A stretch of 64,000 bases of DNA, taken from an uncultured Alphaproteobacteria bacterium. Its GTDB lineage: Bacteria; Pseudomonadota; Alphaproteobacteria; Rs-D84. The stretch is from contig CALXLO010000002.1 in the NCBI GenBank assembly GCA_944389235.1, forward strand, positions 54,327 to 118,326. Reading direction: 5' to 3'. The notes below the pieces were generated by a model. That model searched no databases and had not been told where the DNA came from. It saw nothing but the letters and a program-made list of their open reading frames with translations. Every line of letters begins with the position of its first letter. The stretch's first letter is position 1. The position numbers and the translations under genes are program-made. This document shows, one piece after another, positions 1 through 45,257 of this stretch.

Positions 1-2
1 TA

Positions 3-710
3 AATTATTTCAGTGAACAACTGGGGGCTGTATGTGGTACAGATATGTCTTGCTTGCCGACGGATACGACAATTGCGTCATTGGTTTCTATCCCCGAAGA
101 TTCAGCCGGGTTGGCGGAATTGCGTGAAACAGTGCGTGCAAATACTGAAACCGCGGTTGACGAATTTTTTGAACAGTTCGAAAAAGACAAAACTGTTGCG
201 GCGTGTCAAGACAGCCAAAAACCAGCAGACCGTCAAAGCCTGGGCGACAGCGTGTTTAACAGTGCAAAAATGATTGCACAAATTGGTGCGGAAAATCGTG
301 CAATGCGTGAACTGGAATCCAAGATTGCAGAATTATCGCGTGAACAAGATTTGGCCGCTGCGGAAGAAAATTGTTATAACACATACCAGGTTGAAACCCC
401 GGATAAATCCAGTAAAAATTACAGTTATATCCGCAGTGTGTCATTTGAACCAGCGTTGCGTAATTGCCATGTTTGCCGCATGCAACAGGTTTGTGAAACA
501 GGTGGTCAGTCCAAGGCAACGGCCGGTGTCCAAGGTTTAGCGGGCGGATTGTCGGCTGGTGCGGCGGCGGGTACAATGGTATCGCCAGGTTGGGGTACGG
601 CAATTGGTGGCGTTGTTGGTGCCGTCGGCGGATTCTTTGCTGGACGCAGTGCAGGCGGCGAAGAAGAATTCTGTCAAGAAATTGAAACTTGCGAAGATAT
701 AAATATGTAA
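3..710 (+). CDS. 3' part of a Cys/Gly-rich secreted-family protein; the 5' end lies outside the window. Contains a glycine-zipper segment and ends in CEDINM.
   Basis: The frame is open from the window edge, with no stop before the ATG at 45. The tail ...RNCHVCRMQQVCETGG...GGVVGAVGGFFAG...FCQEIETCEDINM resembles the C-termini ending at 3271 and 3350. Confidence 0.6.
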   Translation, partial: NYFSEQLGAVCGTDMSCLPTDTTIASLVSIPEDSAGLAELRETVRANTETAVDEFFEQFEKDKTVAACQDSQKPADRQSLGDSVFNSAKMIAQIGAENRAMRELESKIAELSREQDLAAAEENCYNTYQVETPDKSSKNYSYIRSVSFEPALRNCHVCRMQQVCETGGQSKATAGVQGLAGGLSAGAAAGTMVSPGWGTAIGGVVGAVGGFFAGRSAGGEEEFCQEIETCEDINM

Positions 711-766
711 TGCAAATTGGGGTGTTTGCCCCATTGCATCTTGTTATACGGAGAGAGGAAAAATAA

Positions 767-3271
767 ATGTGGCATAAAAAAATTGTTTTGTTTTCTGTTT
801 GCGCAATGGCGGTTGTGTTTGGGGCATATAATTCGTATGCGGTCAGTCGCACGACCAAGCAATCTGCTATTCAACAGGGAACAACTGTTCGTACAAAAAT
901 AGAAGCGACCGGATTGTATGACCAGGCATGTTATGATGCATATTTTGGATGTATGGACCAATTTTGTATAACAGATAACGCCAGTGGCGGCGCGTGTATG
1001 TGCAGCGATGACAGCATTGAATATGAAAAAGAATTTGCCGCAATTCAAGAAATTCTGGACGAAGCGAATCGCTTGCGTACCGAAGAGGTTGAACGCGTCC
1101 AAGCCGGTGCAAATGCAGATATTATATTTACCGGCGAACGCCATTATGATGCAGACGGTAATATTCTGGATGATGGCGAATTAACCGCAGCAGAACAAAA
1201 GGCCAAAGAACAAGAGAGCCTGTTGTCTATGTGGAATACCAGTATTTTTGATGACCCCGCCGAAGAAGAAACAGTTAATATTGCTGATATGGTGGGTGAT
1301 GAATTATATCAGGCCGCAGATGATTTGTGCGTTGCCCAGGTGCCAGATTCTTGTTCTGGTGATATAACTTTTCTGCGTCAATTATATTCACGGCAAATTA
1401 CATCTGATTGCTTGGGGTATAAAAATTCTTTGGCGGAACAACGGTCCAAGGCTGAAAATGAATTAGCGGCGGCAGAATCCGAAGTGCGCGCTGCATTACA
1501 AGAAAGTTTTGAAAGTGCCAATAAATATGACCTGGGGCAGTGCATGGTAGAGTTCCGCAAGTGCATGCAAACCGCAGACGCGTGTGGCGATAATTGGGAA
1601 AATTGTGTCGCAGCAATTGCGTCTGAAAATATGCAAAATAATGCCGCAACCAGTACCGCTGGTACAACAGTTGAATCTGCCGAGACATACGATATAACCG
1701 CGTCCACGATGGATGTATTAAATTCCAAGCGGCCCATTTGTGAAAATGTGTTATCACAATGTGTTGCGGTGCGCGATATGGTGTGGCCGAATTTCTTGCG
1801 CGAAGTTGCGCCATCACTGCGGGTTGCGGAATTACAGGCTGAATCTAAATTCCGTCAATCTTGTTTGACGAATATTTCTGAATGTATAACAACGGCATGT
1901 CGTGATGATATTGCCGGCAAAGGCGTTGCAACAATGGATGCGTGTCTGTCGCGACCGGAAATGGCGCGCAGTTTTTGCAAGGTTGAAATTGACCCGTGCG
2001 AACGCATGGAACCGCTGATTTGGGGATATGTAGAAGACAAATTGGCGGCAATGCGTGTCGACGCATGCACCCAAGAAGTCAAAGATTGCTTTACCGCAGA
2101 TACGCGGTGTGGACCGAACTTTGAAAACTGTATTGGTATGGATTATGACTATATCCATGACATTTGTCCAATTGACAGTTTGGTCGTATGCAAGGCAAAT
2201 AATCCAAACTTTTCTATGGATGATTTAGATTCTATGTTAATGGGGTTGTATTTGAATATAGACAATTCTTTGATGGAACAATGCCAAAACTTGGTTGACC
2301 AAAAAATGGCAGAAATTTGCGGCAGCACCACTGATTGCAATCGTTTTGCCGCCGACGATACAATCGGCACTGGTTCGCTGCGTTCACAAAAAGATGGTGA
2401 TGTATATCGTGTGACGGGTATGATATCGTTCGGCAGTATCAAGATGGGTGATGCCAGTGGTCGCACGACGACAACAGATTCCCAAGGCAACAGTGTTAAA
2501 TTGGGACCTGGGGAAATAGGGGTTTCTGAATATATTGCCAAGATACGCGAACAAAACGACGATGTTCCAAATGCAGATGCGATAATCGATACCATAGAAG
2601 AAGAATTAAACAACATCGCTGGGACAATCAATCGTACGATAGAATTGATATCCCAGGACCCTGAAATTCAATATTGTGTAAGTGGTCGTGATTTATCACA
2701 AATAACTGGCGAAGATGGCGCAGCAACCCAGGCGCGTTTTCCGAACTTGCTGAACCAAATAAAGATGCAAATAGCAGTATCAGCATTGCGTCAAGCACAA
2801 GACAATTATAATAACAAATTGAATACTGCAATTGCAGATGCCACCAAAAACGCATCTGCTGACATCGCACAATACATGTGCCAGAAAATTGCAGAAAATG
2901 GTGGCAATGCGTCGGGCAGCCAGATTGCACAGTCTACGCCACTGACAACGCCATATTCTATCAGTTATGATGTTGGTACTGGTTTAACAGCCGAAGATTT
3001 GACCCGTGGTGGTGCGGGTGTTATCCAAGCAGGTGGAATTACATTCAAAAATGAAGCCTATTTGGGTGGCGGGTCTGGTCTGGAAGGTGGTGGTATGACC
3101 AAAGAAGTTACGGCTATATTTAACCGTGATACGCGTGTATGTCATATTTGTACAACGACAACAACGCAAAATTGTGAAACAACCGGCAGTGTCAGTTGGT
3201 TCCACAATAACCGTAATGTTAATTGCACCACAGAAACATCAGAACCATTCTGTGAAGATATTGTTATGTAA
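767..3271 (+). CDS. Large secreted cysteine-rich coiled-coil protein (834 aa) of unknown family. This is the expression locus of the putative invertible C-terminal switch.
   Basis: RBS ggagagagg lies upstream. Signal peptide MWHKKIVLFSVCAMAVVFGAYNSYA. N-terminal module YDQACYDAYFGCMDQFC...GACMCS is shared with the 29853..33047 protein. Many Cys pairs; C-terminus ...FCEDIVM. Confidence 0.85.
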   Translation: MWHKKIVLFSVCAMAVVFGAYNSYAVSRTTKQSAIQQGTTVRTKIEATGLYDQACYDAYFGCMDQFCITDNASGGACMCSDDSIEYEKEFAAIQEILDEANRLRTEEVERVQAGANADIIFTGERHYDADGNILDDGELTAAEQKAKEQESLLSMWNTSIFDDPAEEETVNIADMVGDELYQAADDLCVAQVPDSCSGDITFLRQLYSRQITSDCLGYKNSLAEQRSKAENELAAAESEVRAALQESFESANKYDLGQCMVEFRKCMQTADACGDNWENCVAAIASENMQNNAATSTAGTTVESAETYDITASTMDVLNSKRPICENVLSQCVAVRDMVWPNFLREVAPSLRVAELQAESKFRQSCLTNISECITTACRDDIAGKGVATMDACLSRPEMARSFCKVEIDPCERMEPLIWGYVEDKLAAMRVDACTQEVKDCFTADTRCGPNFENCIGMDYDYIHDICPIDSLVVCKANNPNFSMDDLDSMLMGLYLNIDNSLMEQCQNLVDQKMAEICGSTTDCNRFAADDTIGTGSLRSQKDGDVYRVTGMISFGSIKMGDASGRTTTTDSQGNSVKLGPGEIGVSEYIAKIREQNDDVPNADAIIDTIEEELNNIAGTINRTIELISQDPEIQYCVSGRDLSQITGEDGAATQARFPNLLNQIKMQIAVSALRQAQDNYNNKLNTAIADATKNASADIAQYMCQKIAENGGNASGSQIAQSTPLTTPYSISYDVGTGLTAEDLTRGGAGVIQAGGITFKNEAYLGGGSGLEGGGMTKEVTAIFNRDTRVCHICTTTTTQNCETTGSVSWFHNNRNVNCTTETSEPFCEDIVM
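2619..2983. repeat. Left arm of a 365-bp inverted repeat, inside the 767..3271 CDS
   Basis: Its reverse complement recurs at 3692..4056. Both boundaries were read directly. The shadow ORFs 2628..2930(-) and 3745..4047(+) have identical 100-aa translations, and the two coding copies have identical protein sequence. Confidence 0.9.
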
Positions 3272-3691
3272 AGTTTGATATAATTTATTGTAAAAAACAG
3301 TCCCGATTGATATCAATCGGGACTGTTTTATATTGTTGTGTATTGTGTTTTACATGACAATATCTTCACATTTTTCCACAGGTTCTGATTCGGTACACTT
3401 TAATTCATCTGTTGCGCCAATACCCAAAAAGCCCTTTTTACTAACCGATTCACAGCTTTTTGTAATCGTTGATGTGCAATAATGACAGGTACGCGTATCA
3501 CGATTAAACACGGACCACATTTCGCGTGTACCACTTGGTAAATCAACCTTTACACGATTCGTTCCCAGTCCGGTAAATGAATTGACCACTTCAGAAAATT
3601 TGCTTGCACCGGCTGTTTTGTCTAATGTTGCAGTGCCACCGGTCGCACTGGACGAATGTCCCGCACCCATAGTTAACAAACTATTATCCAG
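2984..3691. other. Candidate invertible DNA segment (708 bp) carrying two alternative 3' coding ends in opposite orientation
   Basis: Bounded exactly by the two repeat arms. Holds variable end A (2984..3271, +), a central palindromic terminator, and variable end B (3350..3691, -). Both repeat/unique junctions fall on codon boundaries in the same phase. Confidence 0.65.
3298..3325. terminator. Bidirectional rho-independent terminator near the centre of the invertible segment
   Basis: Perfect 28-nt palindrome cagtcccgattgat/atcaatcgggactg, flanked by an A-run on the left and a T-run on the right. Confidence 0.8.
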
Positions 3692-4056
3692 ACCAGTACC
3701 AACATCATAACTGATAGAATATGGCGTTGTCAGTGGCGTAGACTGTGCAATCTGGCTGCCCGACGCATTGCCACCATTTTCTGCAATTTTCTGGCACATG
3801 TATTGTGCGATGTCAGCAGATGCGTTTTTGGTGGCATCTGCAATTGCAGTATTCAATTTGTTATTATAATTGTCTTGTGCTTGACGCAATGCTGATACTG
3901 CTATTTGCATCTTTATTTGGTTCAGCAAGTTCGGAAAACGCGCCTGGGTTGCTGCGCCATCTTCGCCAGTTATTTGTGATAAATCACGACCACTTACACA
4001 ATATTGAATTTCAGGGTCCTGGGATATCAATTCTATCGTACGATTGATTGTCCCAG
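3350..4056 (-). other. Silent, promoterless and start-less alternative C-terminal cassette for the 767..3271 gene
   Basis: The minus-strand frame is open only from a TAA just upstream of the repeat, with no ATG or signal peptide. The first ~120 codons are identical to codons ~618-739 of the 834-aa protein. A divergent but homologous 113-aa tail follows (...FNRDTRTCHYCTSTITKSC...EKCEDIVM). Confidence 0.7.
3692..4056. repeat. Right arm of the 365-bp inverted repeat
   Basis: Reverse complement of 2619..2983. Encodes the same residues (GTINRTIELISQDPEIQYCVSGRD...YDVGTG) on the minus strand. Confidence 0.9.
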
Positions 4057-4185
4057 TAATTTTGCATTTGGAACATTAGTGGGGCGGCATTATATCCCTG
4101 GGGGGCGGGGTAATAAAATTCCTAGACATTTTTGAAAATAAATGTGATATTATATATGCAGGTAAACGAACAAAAGGGGTTATTT

Positions 4186-4554
4186 ATGAAAAAAATTTCT
4201 GCTGTTGCGGCATTATGCACAATTGTCAGCGGTGCGGCGTTCGCCGGATTCCAGCCGAACAATCCATCACCAATGGGTGGCTTTGTTGGTGGCACTGAAA
4301 ATATTGTAACGGTCAGCCAAGCCAAAGAAATGCGCGATGATACACCGGTTATTGTCCAAGGACATATTGTTCAGCGCATGGGTGATGAAAAATATTTATT
4401 TGAAGATTCAACCGGCTCAATTACTGTTGAAATAGACCGCAAAGATTGGCGTGGTCAAACAGTTACGCCATCTGATATGGTGAAACTGTACGGCGAAGTT
4501 GATGCCGGCCTGTTCAAAACAGAAATTGATGTCGATTATGTAACAAAGATGTAA
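4186..4554 (+). CDS. ygiW: Periplasmic OB-fold (BOF) stress protein, YgiW/YdeI family
   Basis: Signal peptide MKKISAVAALCTIVSGAAFA. Mature part ...VTVSQAKEMRDDTPVIVQGHIVQRMGDEKYLFEDSTGSITVEID...VKLYGEVD is typical of the YgiW family. ATG chosen at 4186. Confidence 0.75.
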   Translation: MKKISAVAALCTIVSGAAFAGFQPNNPSPMGGFVGGTENIVTVSQAKEMRDDTPVIVQGHIVQRMGDEKYLFEDSTGSITVEIDRKDWRGQTVTPSDMVKLYGEVDAGLFKTEIDVDYVTKM

Positions 4555-4556
4555 TT

Positions 4557-4586
4557 GAAAAAATCGCCCATTCGGGCGATTTTTTA
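4557..4586. terminator. Bidirectional terminator between ygiW and rplI
   Basis: Hairpin aaatcgccc-attc-gggcgattt with flanking A and T runs. Confidence 0.75.
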
Positions 4587-5204
4587 TTCTGCGTCTGCTG
4601 ATGTTGTTGTTTCAGATTCCGCCGGTTGTTCTGCGACATCTGTTTCAGATTTGTCTGATACAGGTACAGATTCCGTTTCTGTTGCTGGGGCTTCTTCTTC
4701 GGATTTCTTGGTACCGAATGTCAAAACCTTGCCGGCAACCAGTGCATCAATTTCATCTTGTGATTGTGCGACATATACTTTGACCGGAACAATAACATCC
4801 GGATGCAGCGCAATTTGCGTATCAAACGCACCCACAGATTTAATTGGCGCACCTAGCATAACCTGGGCAGATTCAACATTAATGCCAGTCAATTCTTTTA
4901 ACATGCGTGCAATATCGCGTGTTGATACAGAACCATACAGTTGACCAGTATCACCCGCCTGGCGAATCATGTGCAGTTTGGCATTTTTAATTGCATCAAC
5001 ATTACCTTCGGCGGTTTTGCGTGCTGCATCTTGACGCGCCTGTAATTCAGCCTTTTTCGCTTCGAACAGGGCGACATTTTCGCGCGACCAGCGCATTGCT
5101 TTGCCCATTGGTAATAAATAGTTGCGTGCGAAACCTGTTTTAACCTCTACGGTATCGCCGATATTACCCAGTTTTGTAATTTTTTCTGTTAAAATAACTT
5201 TCAT
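4584..5204 (-). CDS. rplI: 50S ribosomal protein L9 with an acidic C-terminal extension
   Basis: MKVILTEKITKLGNIGDTVEVKTGFARNYLLPMGKA... is a canonical L9 N-terminus. Start set at the internal ATG (5204). The ~45-aa E/T/S-rich tail is extra. Confidence 0.9.
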   Translation of the reverse strand: MKVILTEKITKLGNIGDTVEVKTGFARNYLLPMGKAMRWSRENVALFEAKKAELQARQDAARKTAEGNVDAIKNAKLHMIRQAGDTGQLYGSVSTRDIARMLKELTGINVESAQVMLGAPIKSVGAFDTQIALHPDVIVPVKVYVAQSQDEIDALVAGKVLTFGTKKSEEEAPATETESVPVSDKSETDVAEQPAESETTTSADAE

Positions 5205-5258
5205 TTTATCTGTCCTTTGTTTCAAGTTAGGGAAAAATCCCAAATATCCAATTTATAA

Positions 5259-5486
5259 TTATCCCAAGTTATTGCGAACAAACGGCATCAAGCCCAAATG
5301 ACGCGCGCGTTTAATAGCAGTTGCCAATTCGCGTTGGTCTTTTTGTGAAACACCACTGATGCGCGACGGAACAATCTTGCCGCGTTCAGTAATATAATGT
5401 GATAAAGTCTTGATGTCTTTATAGTCAATAACCTTGCCCTTTAACGGGTTAGATTTTTTACGATAAATTGCTGCACGAACGGCCAT
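5259..5486 (-). CDS. rpsR: 30S ribosomal protein S18
   Basis: ...[50 protein letters not shown]. Confidence 0.95.
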
Positions 5487-5824
5487 TATTCCACCTCTTC
5501 ATTATTTTTTTTCATCATGATTGACGGCGCAGTTGCCAATTCTTTGACGCGCACATTCAAGAAACGAATAATATCTTCGTCAATACGCATGCGGCGTTCG
5601 TATTCAGCCACCTTGTCGCCCGGCAATTCAATATTCAGCATGACATAATGCGCCTTGCGATTTTTACGAATTACATAGGCCAAGTTTTTTAATCCCCAAA
5701 ATTCGCTGGATTTTACATCACCGCCCAGTTCTTTGACTATGTCGGTGTATTTTGCCGCTTTTTCTTTGACCTGCGGCTCTGTCAAGTCCTGGCGAAAAAC
5801 CAAGACACTTTCATAAAAAGCCAT
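5486..5824 (-). CDS. rpsF: 30S ribosomal protein S6
   Basis: [19 protein letters not shown]... Operon order rpsF-rpsR-rplI; its stop overlaps the rpsR start. Confidence 0.9.
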
Positions 5825-5998
5825 TTTATTTCCTTTGGTCTATACAGCCAATGACCCCATGTCATCAGCAGGAACATCGCACATTATGACGAAAAAACAA
5901 ATAAAATCAAGTAAAATCTGACGGTAAAAAATGTTGTAATCCCTATTGACTTGGTTTAATTAAATTTATTATCATATAAATATAAAAAGAGAGATTGC

Positions 5999-6775
5999 AT
6001 GACAAATCAGTTCCATCGCGCACTAAACAGAATGGCATTTTTTACCGCACTGTTGGCGGCGGCATTATTACTGTTTTACCAGCCATTTTTGCGTGTGGCA
6101 TCTGCAAATATAATATTAAATGGTATAATAATCGGAACAACATTGTTCGGTATCGGACTGTGTTTTATTGAAATGTTCCGGTTAATGCCCGAATATCGCT
6201 GGGCACACGCATATTTTTCGGGTCGGCGGAATATTCCACTGCCGCCGCGGCTGCTGCGCCCTGTGGCAATATTATTGCGTTCGCGCCCGCGTCGGATTAT
6301 GGCATCTGCATTAAATGGGATGCTGGATATGATTCAGCTGCGCTTTGATGACGCGCGCGAATCTGTGCGATATATAACCAATACCTTGATATTCTTGGGG
6401 TTGTTGGGGACATTTTGGGGGTTGATTATAACTGTTGGCGGCTTTGCAGACTTAATCAGCAATTTGAATTTTAATGATGAATCTGTTTTACAGGCGATGC
6501 AGGCTGGATTGGCAGGACCATTATCTGGGATGGCGACCGCATTTACCAGTTCACTGATGGGACTGGCCGGCAGTTTGATTATCGGATTTTTGGGTTTACA
6601 GGTACAATCGGCACAAAACGCAATTTTCCGCGAACTGGAAGATTACTTGGCATCGCATACCAGTGTTGCAAATAATGATGATATGAATGAATTATTGCCA
6701 AAAATCAGCGATACTGCCACAGAATTAAACAACAGTGTACGCGCATTAAATCGTACATTTAATGAAATGACATAA
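5999..6775 (+). CDS. MotA/TolQ/ExbB-family proton-channel membrane protein
   Basis: N-terminal TM helices. C-terminal signature region NTLIFLGLLGTFWGLI...PLSGMATAFTSSLMGLAGSLIIGF is typical of MotA/ExbB channels. Confidence 0.7.
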   Translation: MTNQFHRALNRMAFFTALLAAALLLFYQPFLRVASANIILNGIIIGTTLFGIGLCFIEMFRLMPEYRWAHAYFSGRRNIPLPPRLLRPVAILLRSRPRRIMASALNGMLDMIQLRFDDARESVRYITNTLIFLGLLGTFWGLIITVGGFADLISNLNFNDESVLQAMQAGLAGPLSGMATAFTSSLMGLAGSLIIGFLGLQVQSAQNAIFRELEDYLASHTSVANNDDMNELLPKISDTATELNNSVRALNRTFNEMT

Positions 6776-6816
6776 TGTGATATTATGTCATTAAAAGCGA
6801 GAGAGGAGAAAACATC

Positions 6817-7929
6817 ATGATGAAATTTCGTTTTCGTAATCAGACAAATACATGGCCGGCTTTTGTCGATTTGTTTTCTAATTTAGCAATTATATTAATA
6901 TTTTTATTGATAGTGTTTGTGTTCTTGTGGACGACGACCAGTGTTTTTAACAAAGACACTGGGGCCAAGGCTGTTGCTGATTTGCGCAAGGCAAATGAAG
7001 AACAGGCACAAAAAATCGTTCAAATGACGGCTGATGAAGAAGAGGCTAAACAATTATTAATCTTGGCGCGTAATGAACTGGAAAATTTAACTGCTGATAA
7101 TACAGAAATGTCGGCGCAACTGGAACAAATTGATATCAGTATGAACGAATTGGTTGCCGAGTATGAGGCCAAGGTCGCCGAACTGCAATCCCAAGGTGTT
7201 GATTTACAATCCCAGGTTGCTGAATTGACAACACAATTAAATCAGGCAAATCTGAATCAGCAACGCACGGCGGAACTGGAACAAGAACGGCGTGAACTGC
7301 AAGACCAAATGAATCAGCAACGCGCATCGTTGGCACAACAATTGCAAAAATTGCAAGATGCATTGGCGGCGGCGGAACAAGAATCACAAGAAAAAGATAT
7401 TCAATATGTTGAAATGTCAAACCGCCTGAACAAAGCGTTGGCTGATAAGGTCGCAGAATTAAATAATGTTGCACAATATCAGTCTGAATTTTACAAGGCC
7501 ATAAAAGACGCATTGGGGGACGGTAATTATATACAACCATCTGGCGACCGCTTTATTGTATCCAGCGATATTTTATTCAGCAGCGGTTCGTATACTCTGT
7601 CGCCCGAAGGAAAAAATCAACTGCGCTTGATTGCAAATGTAATCAAAGATTTAGAAAATATCATTCCAACAGATATTGATTGGATTATTCGCGTTGATGG
7701 TCATACAGACCGCCAGCCTGTTATGTCTGGCACACGCGCATTCAAAAACAATATGGAATTATCGCTGTTGCGTGCAAATGCGGTTGTCGATGAATTGACC
7801 AAAGCAGGTGTTTCGCCCCGTCGTTTGGTCCCCAGCGGGTTTGGCGACTTGCACCCCGTAGCGTTGGGTACCGATGCCGCCAGTATGCAGCAAAATCGCC
7901 GCATAGAATTACAATTAACAAACAGATAA
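6817..7929 (+). CDS. MotB/OmpA-like peptidoglycan-binding protein with N-terminal TM helix and long Q/E-rich coiled coil
   Basis: WPAFVDLFSNLAIILIFLLIVF plug/TM region, ~200 aa of coiled coil, then an OmpA-like C-terminal domain (...RVDGHTDRQP...NMELSLLRANAVVDELTKAGVSPRRL...GFGD..P...NRRIEL). Confidence 0.75.
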   Translation: MMKFRFRNQTNTWPAFVDLFSNLAIILIFLLIVFVFLWTTTSVFNKDTGAKAVADLRKANEEQAQKIVQMTADEEEAKQLLILARNELENLTADNTEMSAQLEQIDISMNELVAEYEAKVAELQSQGVDLQSQVAELTTQLNQANLNQQRTAELEQERRELQDQMNQQRASLAQQLQKLQDALAAAEQESQEKDIQYVEMSNRLNKALADKVAELNNVAQYQSEFYKAIKDALGDGNYIQPSGDRFIVSSDILFSSGSYTLSPEGKNQLRLIANVIKDLENIIPTDIDWIIRVDGHTDRQPVMSGTRAFKNNMELSLLRANAVVDELTKAGVSPRRLVPSGFGDLHPVALGTDAASMQQNRRIELQLTNR

Positions 7930-7955
7930 AATCGCCCGAATGGGCGGTTTTTATT
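7927..7955. terminator. Bidirectional terminator shared by the MotB-like gene and the 7984..8562 gene
   Basis: Hairpin aaaatcgccc-gaat-gggcggtttt. It lies inside the repeat shared with 22996..23025. Confidence 0.75.
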
Positions 7956-7983
7956 TGCCAGCGCGGTGCCCCAGGTGGTGATG

Positions 7984-8562
7984 TTATGCGGGAAACATAT
8001 CACCGTAATATATAACATCGCCTATTTTCACATGTAATGCCGGACTGGTTAATTTTGCAGTGCGCAGATATAAAACATATTCACCAATATGTAATATACG
8101 ACCGCAATCATCTGCACTATCCGACCCCGGCGGCGAATATAATCCGTCTGGACATTGTGTTATCCCAGAATCTGTGTTTGTTGGGTTAAATGTTCCCCCA
8201 GGGCAATATGAATTTTTCGGACATTGTGTGCAAGAAGTGCTATCTGCCGGTAAATAATATCCTGGATTACAAGATATTTCTTCTATTTCCATCGGAATAC
8301 AGTCATCAATACTGTCATGGTCCGCAGCGGTATCACCAATCGTGCCCGTCCCCGCAGGACACGGGGTACACTCTTCTACTGAATAAAGACAGTCTTCTTG
8401 ATATGTGTTAACTGGGCAAACATAACACTTGCCCGAACTGTCTGGAAAGCTACCGGGGGCACATACAAAGCCGGTATCGGTACCGACTGGTTCACAAAAT
8501 ATTACCCCCCAACCGACATTGCATATCATGCACGCGACAATGGCGACAAATATCTTTTTCAT
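7984..8562 (-). CDS. Small secreted protein built of CxxCP...Y cysteine-rich repeats (furin-like / ephrin-receptor-like pattern)
   Basis: Signal peptide MKKIFVAIVACMICNVGWG. Repeats CYVCPVNTYQ, CTPCPAGTG, CTQCPKNSYCPGGTF. The 3' ~330 bp plus terminator are near-identical to 22690..23027. Confidence 0.8.
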   Translation of the reverse strand: MKKIFVAIVACMICNVGWGVIFCEPVGTDTGFVCAPGSFPDSSGKCYVCPVNTYQEDCLYSVEECTPCPAGTGTIGDTAADHDSIDDCIPMEIEEISCNPGYYLPADSTSCTQCPKNSYCPGGTFNPTNTDSGITQCPDGLYSPPGSDSADDCGRILHIGEYVLYLRTAKLTSPALHVKIGDVIYYGDMFPA

Positions 8563-8745
8563 CTTTAACCCCCATTTTGCAACAAAAAACCACCGGAAAT
8601 AAATTCAAGTGGTTGGAGGTTAGCAACTATCAAATACAATAGTGTCGTTTATTCAATATATTCACGAACCCTCCAACCCGGATTGGTTGGAGTATGCGTA
8701 TTTGCGAGGTTGCTACACCCCATATCAGAAACTTTCTGATACATC
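8563..8745 (-). ncRNA. Structured leader RNA / sRNA, copy A (unnamed motif) upstream of 7984..8562
   Basis: -10 tataat (plus-strand 8749..8754). 5' hairpin atcagaaa/tttctgat, then P1 ctccaacc/ggttggag, a hairpin with loop gaatatattgaataa, a hairpin actat/atagt, then cctccaacc overlapping the terminator aaccac/gtggtt+T-run. SD gggggttaaag follows, then the ATG. Confidence 0.6.
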
Positions 8746-21810: not shown

Positions 21811-22006
21811 GCAGTGGTGTGTTGCCACTGTGGGGGTCATAGCTCGATACCAAGCATCATGCGGATGTAAAACGAAACTCCAACCAATGTGGGTTGGAGG
21901 TGGCTTTGAATATATTGAATAAAAGCCACAATTCTTGGTAATTGCTATGAACCTCCAACCACCTGAATGTTTCCGGTGGTTTTTTGTTGTAAAACGGGGG
22001 GTAAAG
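21811..22006 (+). ncRNA. Structured leader RNA / sRNA, copy B, upstream of the disrupted Cys-rich gene
   Basis: A tataat-like -10 sits just upstream. Hairpin cagtgg-tgtgttg-ccactg; P1 ctccaacc (21878..21885)/ggttggag (21892..21899); hairpin gtggcttt-gaatatattgaataa-aagccac; hairpin caatt/aattg; cctccaacc (21952..21960) overlapping the terminator aaccacc/ggtggtt+T-run. SD ggggggtaaag precedes the ATG at 22007. Confidence 0.6.
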
Positions 22007-22963
22007 ATGAAAACGCAAAGCATAGCAACAAGCATGCTGATGTCAATCGGTGTTGTACTGCTATTGCTGTGGAATGTTCACCTGGGTATTATGTTTCCGG
22101 CAACAGTTGCATGGATTGTGGCAATGGCTATTATTGTCCTGATGGTATTAACAGAATATCATGTAAAGATACTGTAAAGCCGGGCTCGCCAGAACCAAAT
22201 GCGATTCAATCAATTTCAAATGGCAGTTGGGCTGACAATAATCATGCAGTCAGCGAATGGGATTGTGTATGTGATTGGGAATTTGAAGATGAAACCAGAA
22301 TAAAATATTTGAATGAAGGCGCGTGTCCAACTGGACCTTGGGAACCTGATTATACCTATTATTACTGGTGTCGCACCGGATATTATGCCAACGACCCTTT
22401 GCATAGAGGTGATTGGTATTCCAGTTGTTCGCCATGTACCAATGGACCCGAAAATTCAATATATACAGGTTATTCAACCCCATCGGTTATGTATGCTGTG
22501 GAAAGTAATTGTCCGTGGCAATGTAATGCAGGATATTATCGTGATGGTAATATTTGTATGGGTTGCCCTGAAACGCATCCAAATTCTGCCACCGGCAGTG
22601 ATAATATAAATCACTGCTATGCAATATGTAATAATAATAAAATAGCATATTATGATAACAATTGTACCTATCCGATTGAATGTACGCAGGGGTATTATTT
22701 ACCTGCAAACAGCCAGCAGTGTACACAGTGTCCGAAAAATTCATATTGCCCTGGGGGAACATTTAACCCAACAAACACAGATTCTGGGATAACACAATGC
22801 CCAGATAATATGTATTCGCCGCTGGGTTCTGATAGCGCAGATGATTGGTATATTACATATTGGCGAATATGTTTTATATCTGCGCACTGCAAAATTAACC
22901 AGTCCGGCATTACATGTGAAAATAGGCGATGTTATATATTACGGTGATATGTTTCCTGCATAA
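22007..22963 (+). pseudogene. Paralogue of 7984..8562 (CxxCP...Y Cys-rich repeat protein), apparently disrupted by two frameshifts
   Basis: The conserved SD+ATG (22007) opens a signal-peptide frame (MKTQSIATSMLMSIGVVLLLL) that stops at 22177. The Cys-rich body is in another frame (ORF 21967..22947). Five nt are missing near 22849 relative to copy 1 (gattgcggtcgtata vs gattggtata), which puts the conserved tail ...ILHIGEYVLYLRTAKLTSPALHVKIGDVIYYGDMFPA out of frame. Confidence 0.55.
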
Positions 22964-22995
22964 CATCACCACCTGGGGGGGCACCGCGCTGGTAA

Positions 22996-23025
22996 ATAAA
23001 AATCGCCCATTTGGGCGATTGATTA
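22996..23025. terminator. Bidirectional terminator, part of the repeat shared with 7927..7955
   Basis: aaaaatcgccca-tt-tgggcgatt. Confidence 0.7.
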
Positions 23026-44627: not shown

Positions 44628-45257
44628 GTGGTATACGGATATATACGCGTATCAACAGACCATCAAACAACAGAAAACCAGCGTTTTGAAATAAAAAAAT
44701 TTTGTGCCAAGCAAGAATTGATAATTGATTGCTGGATAGAAGAAACGATTTCATCAACAATGGATTTGAATAAACGAAAGCTGGGGCGGTTATTAAAAAG
44801 GATAAAAAAAGACGATATGATAATCGCATCAGAATTATCGCGCCTGGGGCGCAATTTGTTGCAAATAATGAGTATTCTGCATCATTGTATGGATGTTGGG
44901 GCAAAAATATGGACAATAAAAGATAATTATCGCTTGGGGTCTGATATTACCAGCAAGGTTTTAGCATTTGCGTTCGGATTGTCTGCGGAAATAGAACGGA
45001 ATTTGATTTCACAACGCACCAAAGAAGCATTGGCACGAATAAAATCCGAAGGTAAACATATTGGTCGCCCATACGGCAGTCGTAATATGTGCAAACTGCA
45101 AGGGTGTGAAAAATATATATCAGACAAATTGGCAAATGGAAATACACGACATGAAATTGCGCGGCGGCTGCGGGTGCACCGTGATACATTAAGCAAATTT
45201 ATCGTTTGCAATGGTATCAAGACCGAAGCAGATAATGTCGAACATTTCAGAATTTGA
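44628..45257 (+). CDS. Small serine recombinase (resolvase/DNA-invertase family)
   Basis: GTG start with aggag RBS. N-terminal catalytic motif YGYIRVSTDHQ, ...ASELSRLGRN..., ...ERNLISQRTKEALA...GRP, and a C-terminal HTH (RHEIARRLRVHRDTLSKF). Confidence 0.85.
   Translation: MVYGYIRVSTDHQTTENQRFEIKKFCAKQELIIDCWIEETISSTMDLNKRKLGRLLKRIKKDDMIIASELSRLGRNLLQIMSILHHCMDVGAKIWTIKDNYRLGSDITSKVLAFAFGLSAEIERNLISQRTKEALARIKSEGKHIGRPYGSRNMCKLQGCEKYISDKLANGNTRHEIARRLRVHRDTLSKFIVCNGIKTEADNVEHFRI

Follow-up and report, generated by a model that had tools for sequence, protein, structure and literature searches.

A probable gene-altering invertible segment at the 3' end of a gene for a secreted cysteine-rich protein in Candidatus Enterousia

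The stretch of DNA analyzed here (the window) comprises 64,000 nucleotides of an uncultured alphaproteobacterium of lineage Rs-D84 (GenBank assembly GCA_944389235.1, contig CALXLO010000002.1, positions 54,327 to 118,326). Close to its start lies a gene for a secreted cysteine-rich protein of 834 amino acids, with a hydrophobic, signal-like segment at its N-terminus, and the 3' portion of this gene takes part in a large inverted repeat that is the subject of this work (Table 1). A homologue 78% identical to this protein carries the name of a Candidatus Enterousia intestinigallinarum protein, and the 80 species-level loci that we retrieved are from gut metagenome-assembled genomes (MAGs) of Alphaproteobacteria or Enterousia. 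Enterousia has been placed in the order Rs-D84; its genomes are reduced, mostly below 1 Mb, and a dependence on partners has been proposed (PMC12306168). Inverted repeats were surveyed across the whole window, and orientation states of the locus were read from public metagenome assemblies.

The two arms of the repeat are exact reverse complements of each other over 365 nt, and when three mismatches at the outer edge are allowed they extend to 373 nt at 99% identity (2611–2983 and 3692–4064), with a spacer of 708 nt. In length this pair far exceeds every other inverted repeat in the window, and its origin by chance is excluded. The unique core between the arms contains two convergent 3' ends, tail A and tail B, and a hairpin with the features of an intrinsic terminator that sits between their stop codons. 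A codon starts at 2984, so tail A follows the arm in frame. Tails A and B are homologous and diverged, being about 42% identical over their last 59 residues, where they have the motif FNRDTRxCHxCT...CEDIVM in common. The reading frame that runs through the right arm on the minus strand contains neither an ATG nor a signal peptide, and some 20 nt beyond the arm an in-frame TAA ends it. The TTG at 4030 encodes a Leu within the repeat. Outside the repeat boundary, 14 nt of the gene sequence 2562–2575 persist as a relic at 4063–4076, now out of frame; the duplication must initially have reached further out, with similarity maintained only from 2619 inward. A G+C-rich stretch (CCCCGCCCCCCAGGG...GCCGCCCCAC, window positions ~4085–4115), unusual for an A+T-rich genome, is comparable to a short G+C-rich leader beside the silent cassette of locus L001 from a second species (see below).

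Flipping the core in silico generated an uninterrupted product of 852 amino acids. A preliminary description of this DNA, made from the sequence alone, had claimed an exact 365-bp inverted repeat, two 3' ends of 95 and 113 codons in the same codon phase within 708 bp, a minus-strand copy without start or signal peptide of its own and with a TAA upstream, and an in-frame fusion to about 852 amino acids upon flipping; sequence comparison, the open reading frames (ORFs) and the in silico flip bore out each of these. It had also described a 28-nt palindromic terminator. The bidirectional hairpin is indeed present, but its real extent is 3294–3329, the 28 nt being the G+C-containing core only.

Table 1. 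Features of the locus and of the window. Positions are those of the 64,000-nt window.
Feature	Position	Strand	Remarks
Expressed gene for the secreted Cys-rich protein, now with tail A	767..3271	+	834 aa, 37 Cys; from the ORF list
Left (gene-internal) arm	2619..2983	+	Encodes residues ~618–739 of the constant part
Speculative candidate crossover site, 10-bp palindrome ATCGTACGAT	2631..2640, copy 4035–4044		12 nt inside the outer arm edges
Unique core, putatively invertible	2984..3691		708 bp; tail A, terminator-like hairpin and tail B
Tail A, currently expressed C-terminal module	2984..3271	+	95 codons and TAA
Bidirectional intrinsic-terminator-like hairpin	3294..3329		Perfect 16-bp stem, 4-nt loop, A-run upstream, T-run downstream
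Tail B, silent alternative C-terminal module	3350..3691	-	113 codons and TAA, in phase with the repeat
Right arm	3692..4056	-	Start-less, promoterless duplicate of the constant segment
Decayed outer edge of the duplication	4057..4078	-	In-frame TAA (4078–4076) and out-of-frame 14-nt relic
Mpi-family serine DNA invertase gene, candidate catalyst	44628..45257	+	209 aa; Pfam Resolvase, 6e-32

Comparison of 13 assemblies of the same species (flanks 96.6–99.7% identical) revealed both orientations of the core. Tail A is expressed in eight of them, which include L002, L003, L086–L089 and L096, and the other five (L084, L085, L093, L094 and L095) are inverted; L093, L094 and L095 were found by looking up the silent tail-A ORF. 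In the query's 90% cluster, tail B occurs in the members P0140 (851 aa) and P0145 (829 aa). The former is encoded on the 224-kb scaffold L084, which is collinear with window positions 1–2983 and 3692–6000 (97.7% and 98.8% identity) and to which 2611–4064 maps inverted. The L084 locus encodes the 851-aa tail-B protein and, downstream of it, a start-less and promoterless ORF of 208 amino acids consisting of arm and tail A. The arms of L084 differ from each other at 10 positions, the longest identical run being 76 nt. Since these arms can be distinguished, the orientation is not an arbitrary choice of the assembler, and reads could phase through. Reciprocally, the inverted-state loci hold tail A in a silent cassette; their gene is not a converted one.

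The flanking sequence was then set against the orientation. Over the 1,834 nt of gene body in the left flank, the window (tail A) differs from the tail-B loci L085 and L093 at 8 and 11 sites, respectively, and from L087, which also expresses tail A, at 20; the two tail-B loci L084 and L085 differ from each other at 38. Flank haplotypes are thus not sorted by orientation, and at a divergence below 2% the orientation has changed at least twice. Relative to the flanks, orientation is polyphyletic.

We consider it probable that this locus is a gene-altering invertible segment. The preliminary description had proposed that the organism varies the C-terminal domain of a surface or secreted protein by DNA inversion, and had suggested a comparison of related genomes for both orientations; the proposal is largely supported, since both orientations were found among the same-species assemblies (8 versus 5), and the predicted flipped state is present in L084 and four more. 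Recombination between the inverted arms (275–365 bp, residues ~618–739) would flip the intervening 0.7–0.9 kb, and with each flip the constant 739 codons, which keep their promoter and signal peptide, would acquire the alternative tail. Because both arm/tail junctions share the codon phase, each flip would yield an in-frame fusion, and the products would alternate between the 834-aa protein with tail A and a protein of ~852 amino acids with tail B. The unused tail would be parked behind the start-less copy of the arm, and the single bidirectional hairpin would terminate transcription in both states.

Several observations weigh against an invertible segment at this locus. Every orientation state is inferred from metagenome assemblies, and inverted repeats of 275–365 bp resolve badly in short-read assembly. 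All five inverted-state assemblies derive from one ENA sample series (ERZ16268xxx), and four of them, together with one A-state assembly of the same series, contain differing in-frame deletions in the arms, which suggests assembly trouble at the repeat, L084 alone being clean. Single-nucleotide polymorphisms in the arms did not localise crossovers, the informative sites being too few and mostly strain-specific. In addition, the cassette is dispensable. In all 72 species representatives that could be assessed (at least 1.5 kb of sequence downstream) the constant segment occurs only once, the cassette is precisely absent from L028, a locus of the same species as L001 (98–99.6% identity), and in L002 and L003 a net in-frame deletion of 282 nt removes the junction between arm and tail B. 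Finally, no recombinase gene was found among the genes neighbouring the switch, and the Mpi-like gene of the window (Table 1) showed no specific co-occurrence with the cassette.

The locus could alternatively be a static partial duplication, or a one-way donor of gene conversion, in which the minus-strand copy was left behind by a duplication or a horizontal insertion and the inverted states are assembler artefacts. The origin of all orientation evidence in assemblies speaks for this explanation, as do the arm-internal deletions (L085, L093–L096, P0143 and P0147), very short contigs that hold the segment only (L090, 880 nt), and the cassette being present or absent within a species and partly deleted in L002 and L003. 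It is, however, hard to reconcile with L084, a clean reciprocal product on a long scaffold with distinguishable arms, or with the recovery of the same reciprocal structure, silent tail-A cassette included, from five independent samples, and we regard it as very unlikely. That orientation is an artefact of one assembly series was also considered and rejected, as the A-state assembly L096 lies in the same series. The arm deletions themselves remove 8–42 codons in frame inside one arm and were observed in L085 and L093–L096 and in the proteins P0143, P0147, P0275 and P0276; the assemblies with a deletion whose sample was looked up (L085 and L093–L096) all belong to ERZ16268xxx. These deletions may be real variants or mis-assemblies at the inverted repeat.

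Analysis of the arms provided evidence of recombination between them. Other strains of the window's species have a unique core of 901 bp and arms of 275 nt with 96–99% identity, which end in '...AQYMCQ'; beyond this point tail A reads 'KIAENGG...' and tail B reads 'MLPTTGG...'. In the silent cassette of the window, an A-type block replaces the proximal block specific to tail B, and this extends the identity to 365 nt. From its sequence, the 365-nt identity of the window is best described as a recent non-reciprocal gene-conversion tract; such non-reciprocal conversion in the window's cassette is a further point for the static explanation. Mosaic variants were found as well (P0142, P0149 and P0150). 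The second species, represented by L001 (orthologue 73% identical), shares this architecture, and its repeat has identical boundaries on the outer and the inner side. Within its genome the arms match each other at 96% identity, and compared by eye with those of the window they differ at about one position in five throughout. The arms are therefore alike within a genome and different between species, which argues for concerted evolution. With the conversion tract, the mosaics and the homogenised arms, the ongoing recombination or gene conversion that the preliminary description had deduced from the identity of the repeat is supported. Alignment of L001 (5908–6633) with L028 (7530–7537) showed the silent cassette and its short G+C-rich leader to be precisely present in the former and absent from the latter.

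The tails were compared across species. Among the 80 species loci, about 49 tails are A-like (93–96 aa), about 20 are short (77–83 aa) and about 8 are B-like. Tail B is the sole tail, at the same junction, of the full-length orthologues of L023, L024, L030, L034, L035, L055 and L071, and the tail-B species loci are dispersed across a crude neighbour-joining tree built from the constant part. The ratio of nonsynonymous to synonymous substitution rates (dN/dS) between the window and L001 is 0.15 for the silent tails B and 0.14 for the expressed tails A, and the silent cassettes of both species are free of stop codons. These ratios indicate that the silent tail B is under purifying selection, and its occurrence in the orthologues indicates that it is functional elsewhere, fused at the same junction in other species. 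Both observations speak against a static duplication, and the decay of the silent copy that would mark a dead partial duplication, named beforehand as part of what would refute the switch, was not seen in the silent cassettes of these two species. A word-index search that returned short ORFs alone had suggested that tail B is never expressed; this result was rejected as a sensitivity artefact because full-length tail-B genes exist in the species loci and in the query's 90% cluster. P0129 and P0131 were likewise rejected as silent cassettes, since they are in-line tail-B genes broken by frameshifts. In L091 (2834–5318) and L092 (2761–5360), a frameshift near the constant/variable junction breaks the orthologous tail-B gene into two ORFs. 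The distal 250 nt of tail B in L023 (7314–7556) are 97–98% identical to those of L030, far above the 65–85% identity of the gene bodies, and tails have therefore apparently been exchanged between species too; for the tail module of L023 and L030 this points to a recent horizontal exchange.

The locus was next compared with the class of gene-altering programmed inversions defined by Milman, Yelin and Kishony (2023, PMC9881135). Their definition comprises an inverted repeat of at least 44 bp overlapping two coding sequences (CDSs), a CDS distance of at most 2,588 bp, an orientation matching of at least 0.58 (repeats near the facing CDS ends), an asymmetry of at least 0.87 (one CDS lacking the region upstream of the repeat), and the occurrence of the other variant in genomes of the same species (PMC9881135). 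Here, the repeat is exact over 365 nt and the CDSs are separated by 78 nt (between 3271 and 3350). Application of their formula gave an orientation matching of (1852+78+0)/((1852+78+0)+(288+78+342)) = 0.73, and the upstream lengths (u_L = 1852, u_R = 0) gave an asymmetry of 1.0, with an in-frame stop just outside the arm. Variation within the species is represented by the five inverted-state and eight window-state assemblies. The locus thus resembles that class in having inverted repeats inside tail-to-tail CDSs, one of them full-length and the other lacking the sequence upstream of the repeat, in the short CDS distance, in the presence of both variants in the species, and in a target protein of unknown function. 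It differs in having no adjacent recombinase and in arms far longer than the 44-bp threshold.

The preliminary description had likened the locus to the phage Mu G (Gin) and P1 C (Cin) segments and to shufflons. The logic of this comparison holds: the N-terminal part is constant and external to the segment, the alternative C-terminal parts occupy opposite strands within it, and fusion is in frame. The P1 C segment also has long inverted repeats (0.6 kb), at the outer ends of which Cin acts. What does not hold is an adjacent invertase, a phage context and multiple segments. In Mu G, P1 C and Hin systems the invertase gene is adjacent, whereas here the nearest one found is 41 kb away, and their targets are tail-fibre or flagellin-control genes, whereas here the target is a chromosomal gene for a secreted cysteine-rich protein in a housekeeping context. 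In contrast to the Mu and P1 segments, there is no phage context (no PHROG match) and no accessory gene of the U/U' type. Switches of this family use short crossover sites (about 26–34 bp) at the segment borders together with a Fis-dependent enhancer. No gix- or cix-like site of 26–34 bp was recognised at the arms, where only the 10-bp palindrome near the outer edge, which is not enriched, was found. Shufflons of the R64 type consist of several segments bounded by short sfx repeats, with an adjacent gene for the tyrosine recombinase Rci, and act on pilV, unlike the single segment and single repeat pair described here.

Closer parallels are found among systems that use long coding repeats. In the sap locus of Campylobacter fetus, which encodes surface-layer proteins, inversion is RecA-dependent and takes place between conserved gene segments. 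Both loci have long inverted coding segments as substrates for homologous recombination that give alternative variants of a surface protein; in sap, however, the conserved segments are at the 5' end and a promoter-bearing segment flips, whereas here the segment is internal and the 3' ends flip behind a fixed promoter. Long near-identical inverted segments with signs of conversion, as in sap, are represented here by arms of 275–373 nt at 96–100% identity, the conversion tract, the mosaics and the concerted evolution in the second species. At hsdS loci of type I restriction-modification (R-M) systems, inversion at long repeats persists without a local recombinase. The hsdS loci of Streptococcus pneumoniae (SpnD39III/ivr), Mycoplasma pulmonis (hsd) and Bacteroides fragilis resemble the locus in their silent partial genes without a 5' end and in their inverted repeats within CDSs, some of them hundreds of bp long, through which half-genes are swapped by inversion (PMC7641763); the present locus differs in encoding no HsdS, in lacking an R-M context and a local tyrosine recombinase, and in being a single two-state segment where those loci shuffle among multiple repeats. 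The Mpi invertons of B. fragilis (Coyne et al., 2003, cited by PMC5903667) are alike in the non-adjacent Mpi-family invertase, the gut habitat and the surface or secreted target, and differ in that the known Mpi targets are promoter segments with short repeats, whereas the arms here are coding, 275–365 bp long, and enclose no promoter. The locus adds a well-documented natural example to a known class of inversions, from a lineage so far unstudied and a protein family that is uncharacterised, and it introduces no new principle.

As to the enzymology, and within the inversion explanation, we lean towards ordinary homologous (RecA-type) recombination between the long arms, because long near-identical arms with conversion tracts would suffice as substrates and recO is nearby. 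The latter gene is visible in the window and was named from the RecO domains of the orthologous gene. Catalysis by the distant Mpi-family invertase seems, within the same explanation, a clearly weaker though tenable option. No tyrosine recombinase was detected among the window ORFs of at least 150 amino acids that were scanned, and the Mpi-family gene is the only recombinase among them, 41 kb from the switch. Its product matches the NCBIfam equivalog NF009949 ('master DNA invertase Mpi family') with 303 bits, above the curated cutoff of 272, and its PHROG match is a DNA invertase.

A rival account of the mechanism follows from this gene. Inversion would be real and catalysed site-specifically by the Mpi-family invertase near the outer ends of the arms, and the long arms would represent a coding duplication whose copies are kept alike by gene conversion from time to time. 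The family assignment of the invertase agrees with this account, and so does its conservation, at 77–89% identity, in many related MAGs of a genus with genomes of ~1 Mb; retention in such genomes implies that invertible targets must exist. According to PMC5903667, Mpi inverts at least 13 dispersed regions from a distance, and Mpi-family genes are enriched beside predicted gene-altering inversions (PMC9881135). A 10-bp palindrome, ATCGTACGAT, lies at corresponding positions inside both outer arm edges (Table 1), the outer repeat boundary is identical in the second species, and the sequence just beyond it is decayed. Against this account, the palindrome shows no statistical enrichment (the window has 4 matches versus 2.3 expected, not significant alone), and it encodes part of a protein motif, GTINRTIE, that is invariant, so its conservation is uninformative about a DNA site; the second species (L001) has ATCGAACGAT in its place. 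The resemblance of the palindrome to the putative core of Bacteroides Mpi sites, CGTWCG, extends over 6 bp only, and this motif was not found in the literature searched. No other inverted-repeat pair with this palindromic core was found in the window. Moreover, the distance of 41 kb is considerable, and homologues of the invertase are also present on contigs of cassette-less, single-tail species (L016, 94,163 nt; L063, 288,148 nt), so the gene is genus-wide and not tied to the switch locus. Altogether, we find this account doubtful. Its wider form, in which the switch would be one target of a genus-wide 'master invertase' regulon of the Mpi type in Candidatus Enterousia, acting at the outer edge of the long arms, is a speculation that we hold to be improbable; if true, it would place Mpi-style global control of inversion outside Bacteroidales and extend it from promoters to the C-termini of proteins.

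The 834-aa protein has no sequence match in Pfam, NCBIfam, PHROG or PDB. It has more than 1,451 homologues, and an exhaustive HMMER search gave 686 clusters at the 50% identity level. In distant family members the match commonly stops near query residues 700–715, which corresponds to the inner end of the ancestral arm. An AlphaFold2 model from a shallow alignment of 13 sequences was of low confidence (mean predicted local distance difference test score 42, predicted template modelling score 0.24), and it was used solely for the rough pattern of a helical body and a beta-rich tail. The tail would be a beta-rich, disulfide-stabilised C-terminal module, and its variation would alter the surface or secreted interaction or the antigenicity of the protein.

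Two neighbouring genes upstream code for paralogues of the switch protein, of 723 amino acids (31% identical, E = 6e-62) and 835 amino acids (24% identical). As observed in the window (45–710, plus strand) and in L084 (764–5944), three paralogous cysteine-rich secreted proteins (835, 723 and 834 aa) are clustered, with the switch gene last, and no known domain was found in any of the three. The end of the 723-aa neighbour, ...CEDINM, resembles the ...CEDIVM end of both tails and could be a shared C-terminal sorting or folding motif. Apart from these paralogues, the neighbours of the locus are a BOF protein gene and rplI/rpsR/rpsF. Two further genes (5999–7929, plus strand) code for a 258-aa membrane protein weakly similar to stators of the ZorA/MotA type and for a coiled-coil protein of 370 amino acids whose C-terminal domain is OmpA/MotB-like, and this pair is kept beside the locus in all related strains. 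A second inverted duplication connects 7930–8664 with 21907–23020, 14 kb apart, in blocks of 131 nt (98% identity), 167 nt (84%) and 44 nt (93%). It spans two cysteine-rich Ephrin_rec_like genes (7984–8562, minus strand; 21967–22947, plus strand), the first of which differs in length among strains (181, 192, 223 and 253 aa); L093 has an additional copy between rplI and the BOF gene. Recombination may diversify these genes as a second family of surface proteins.

Candidatus Enterousia is an uncultured gut lineage whose surface biology is almost undescribed. The switch singles out one of three clustered genes for uncharacterised cysteine-rich secreted proteins as subject to pressure for variation of its C-terminal module, by routes that would comprise inversion within strains, gene conversion between cassettes and tail exchange between species. 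The tail thereby becomes a prime candidate for contact with the immune system, a host, a phage or a partner cell, and the ratio of the two orientations would be a marker readable from existing gut metagenomes.

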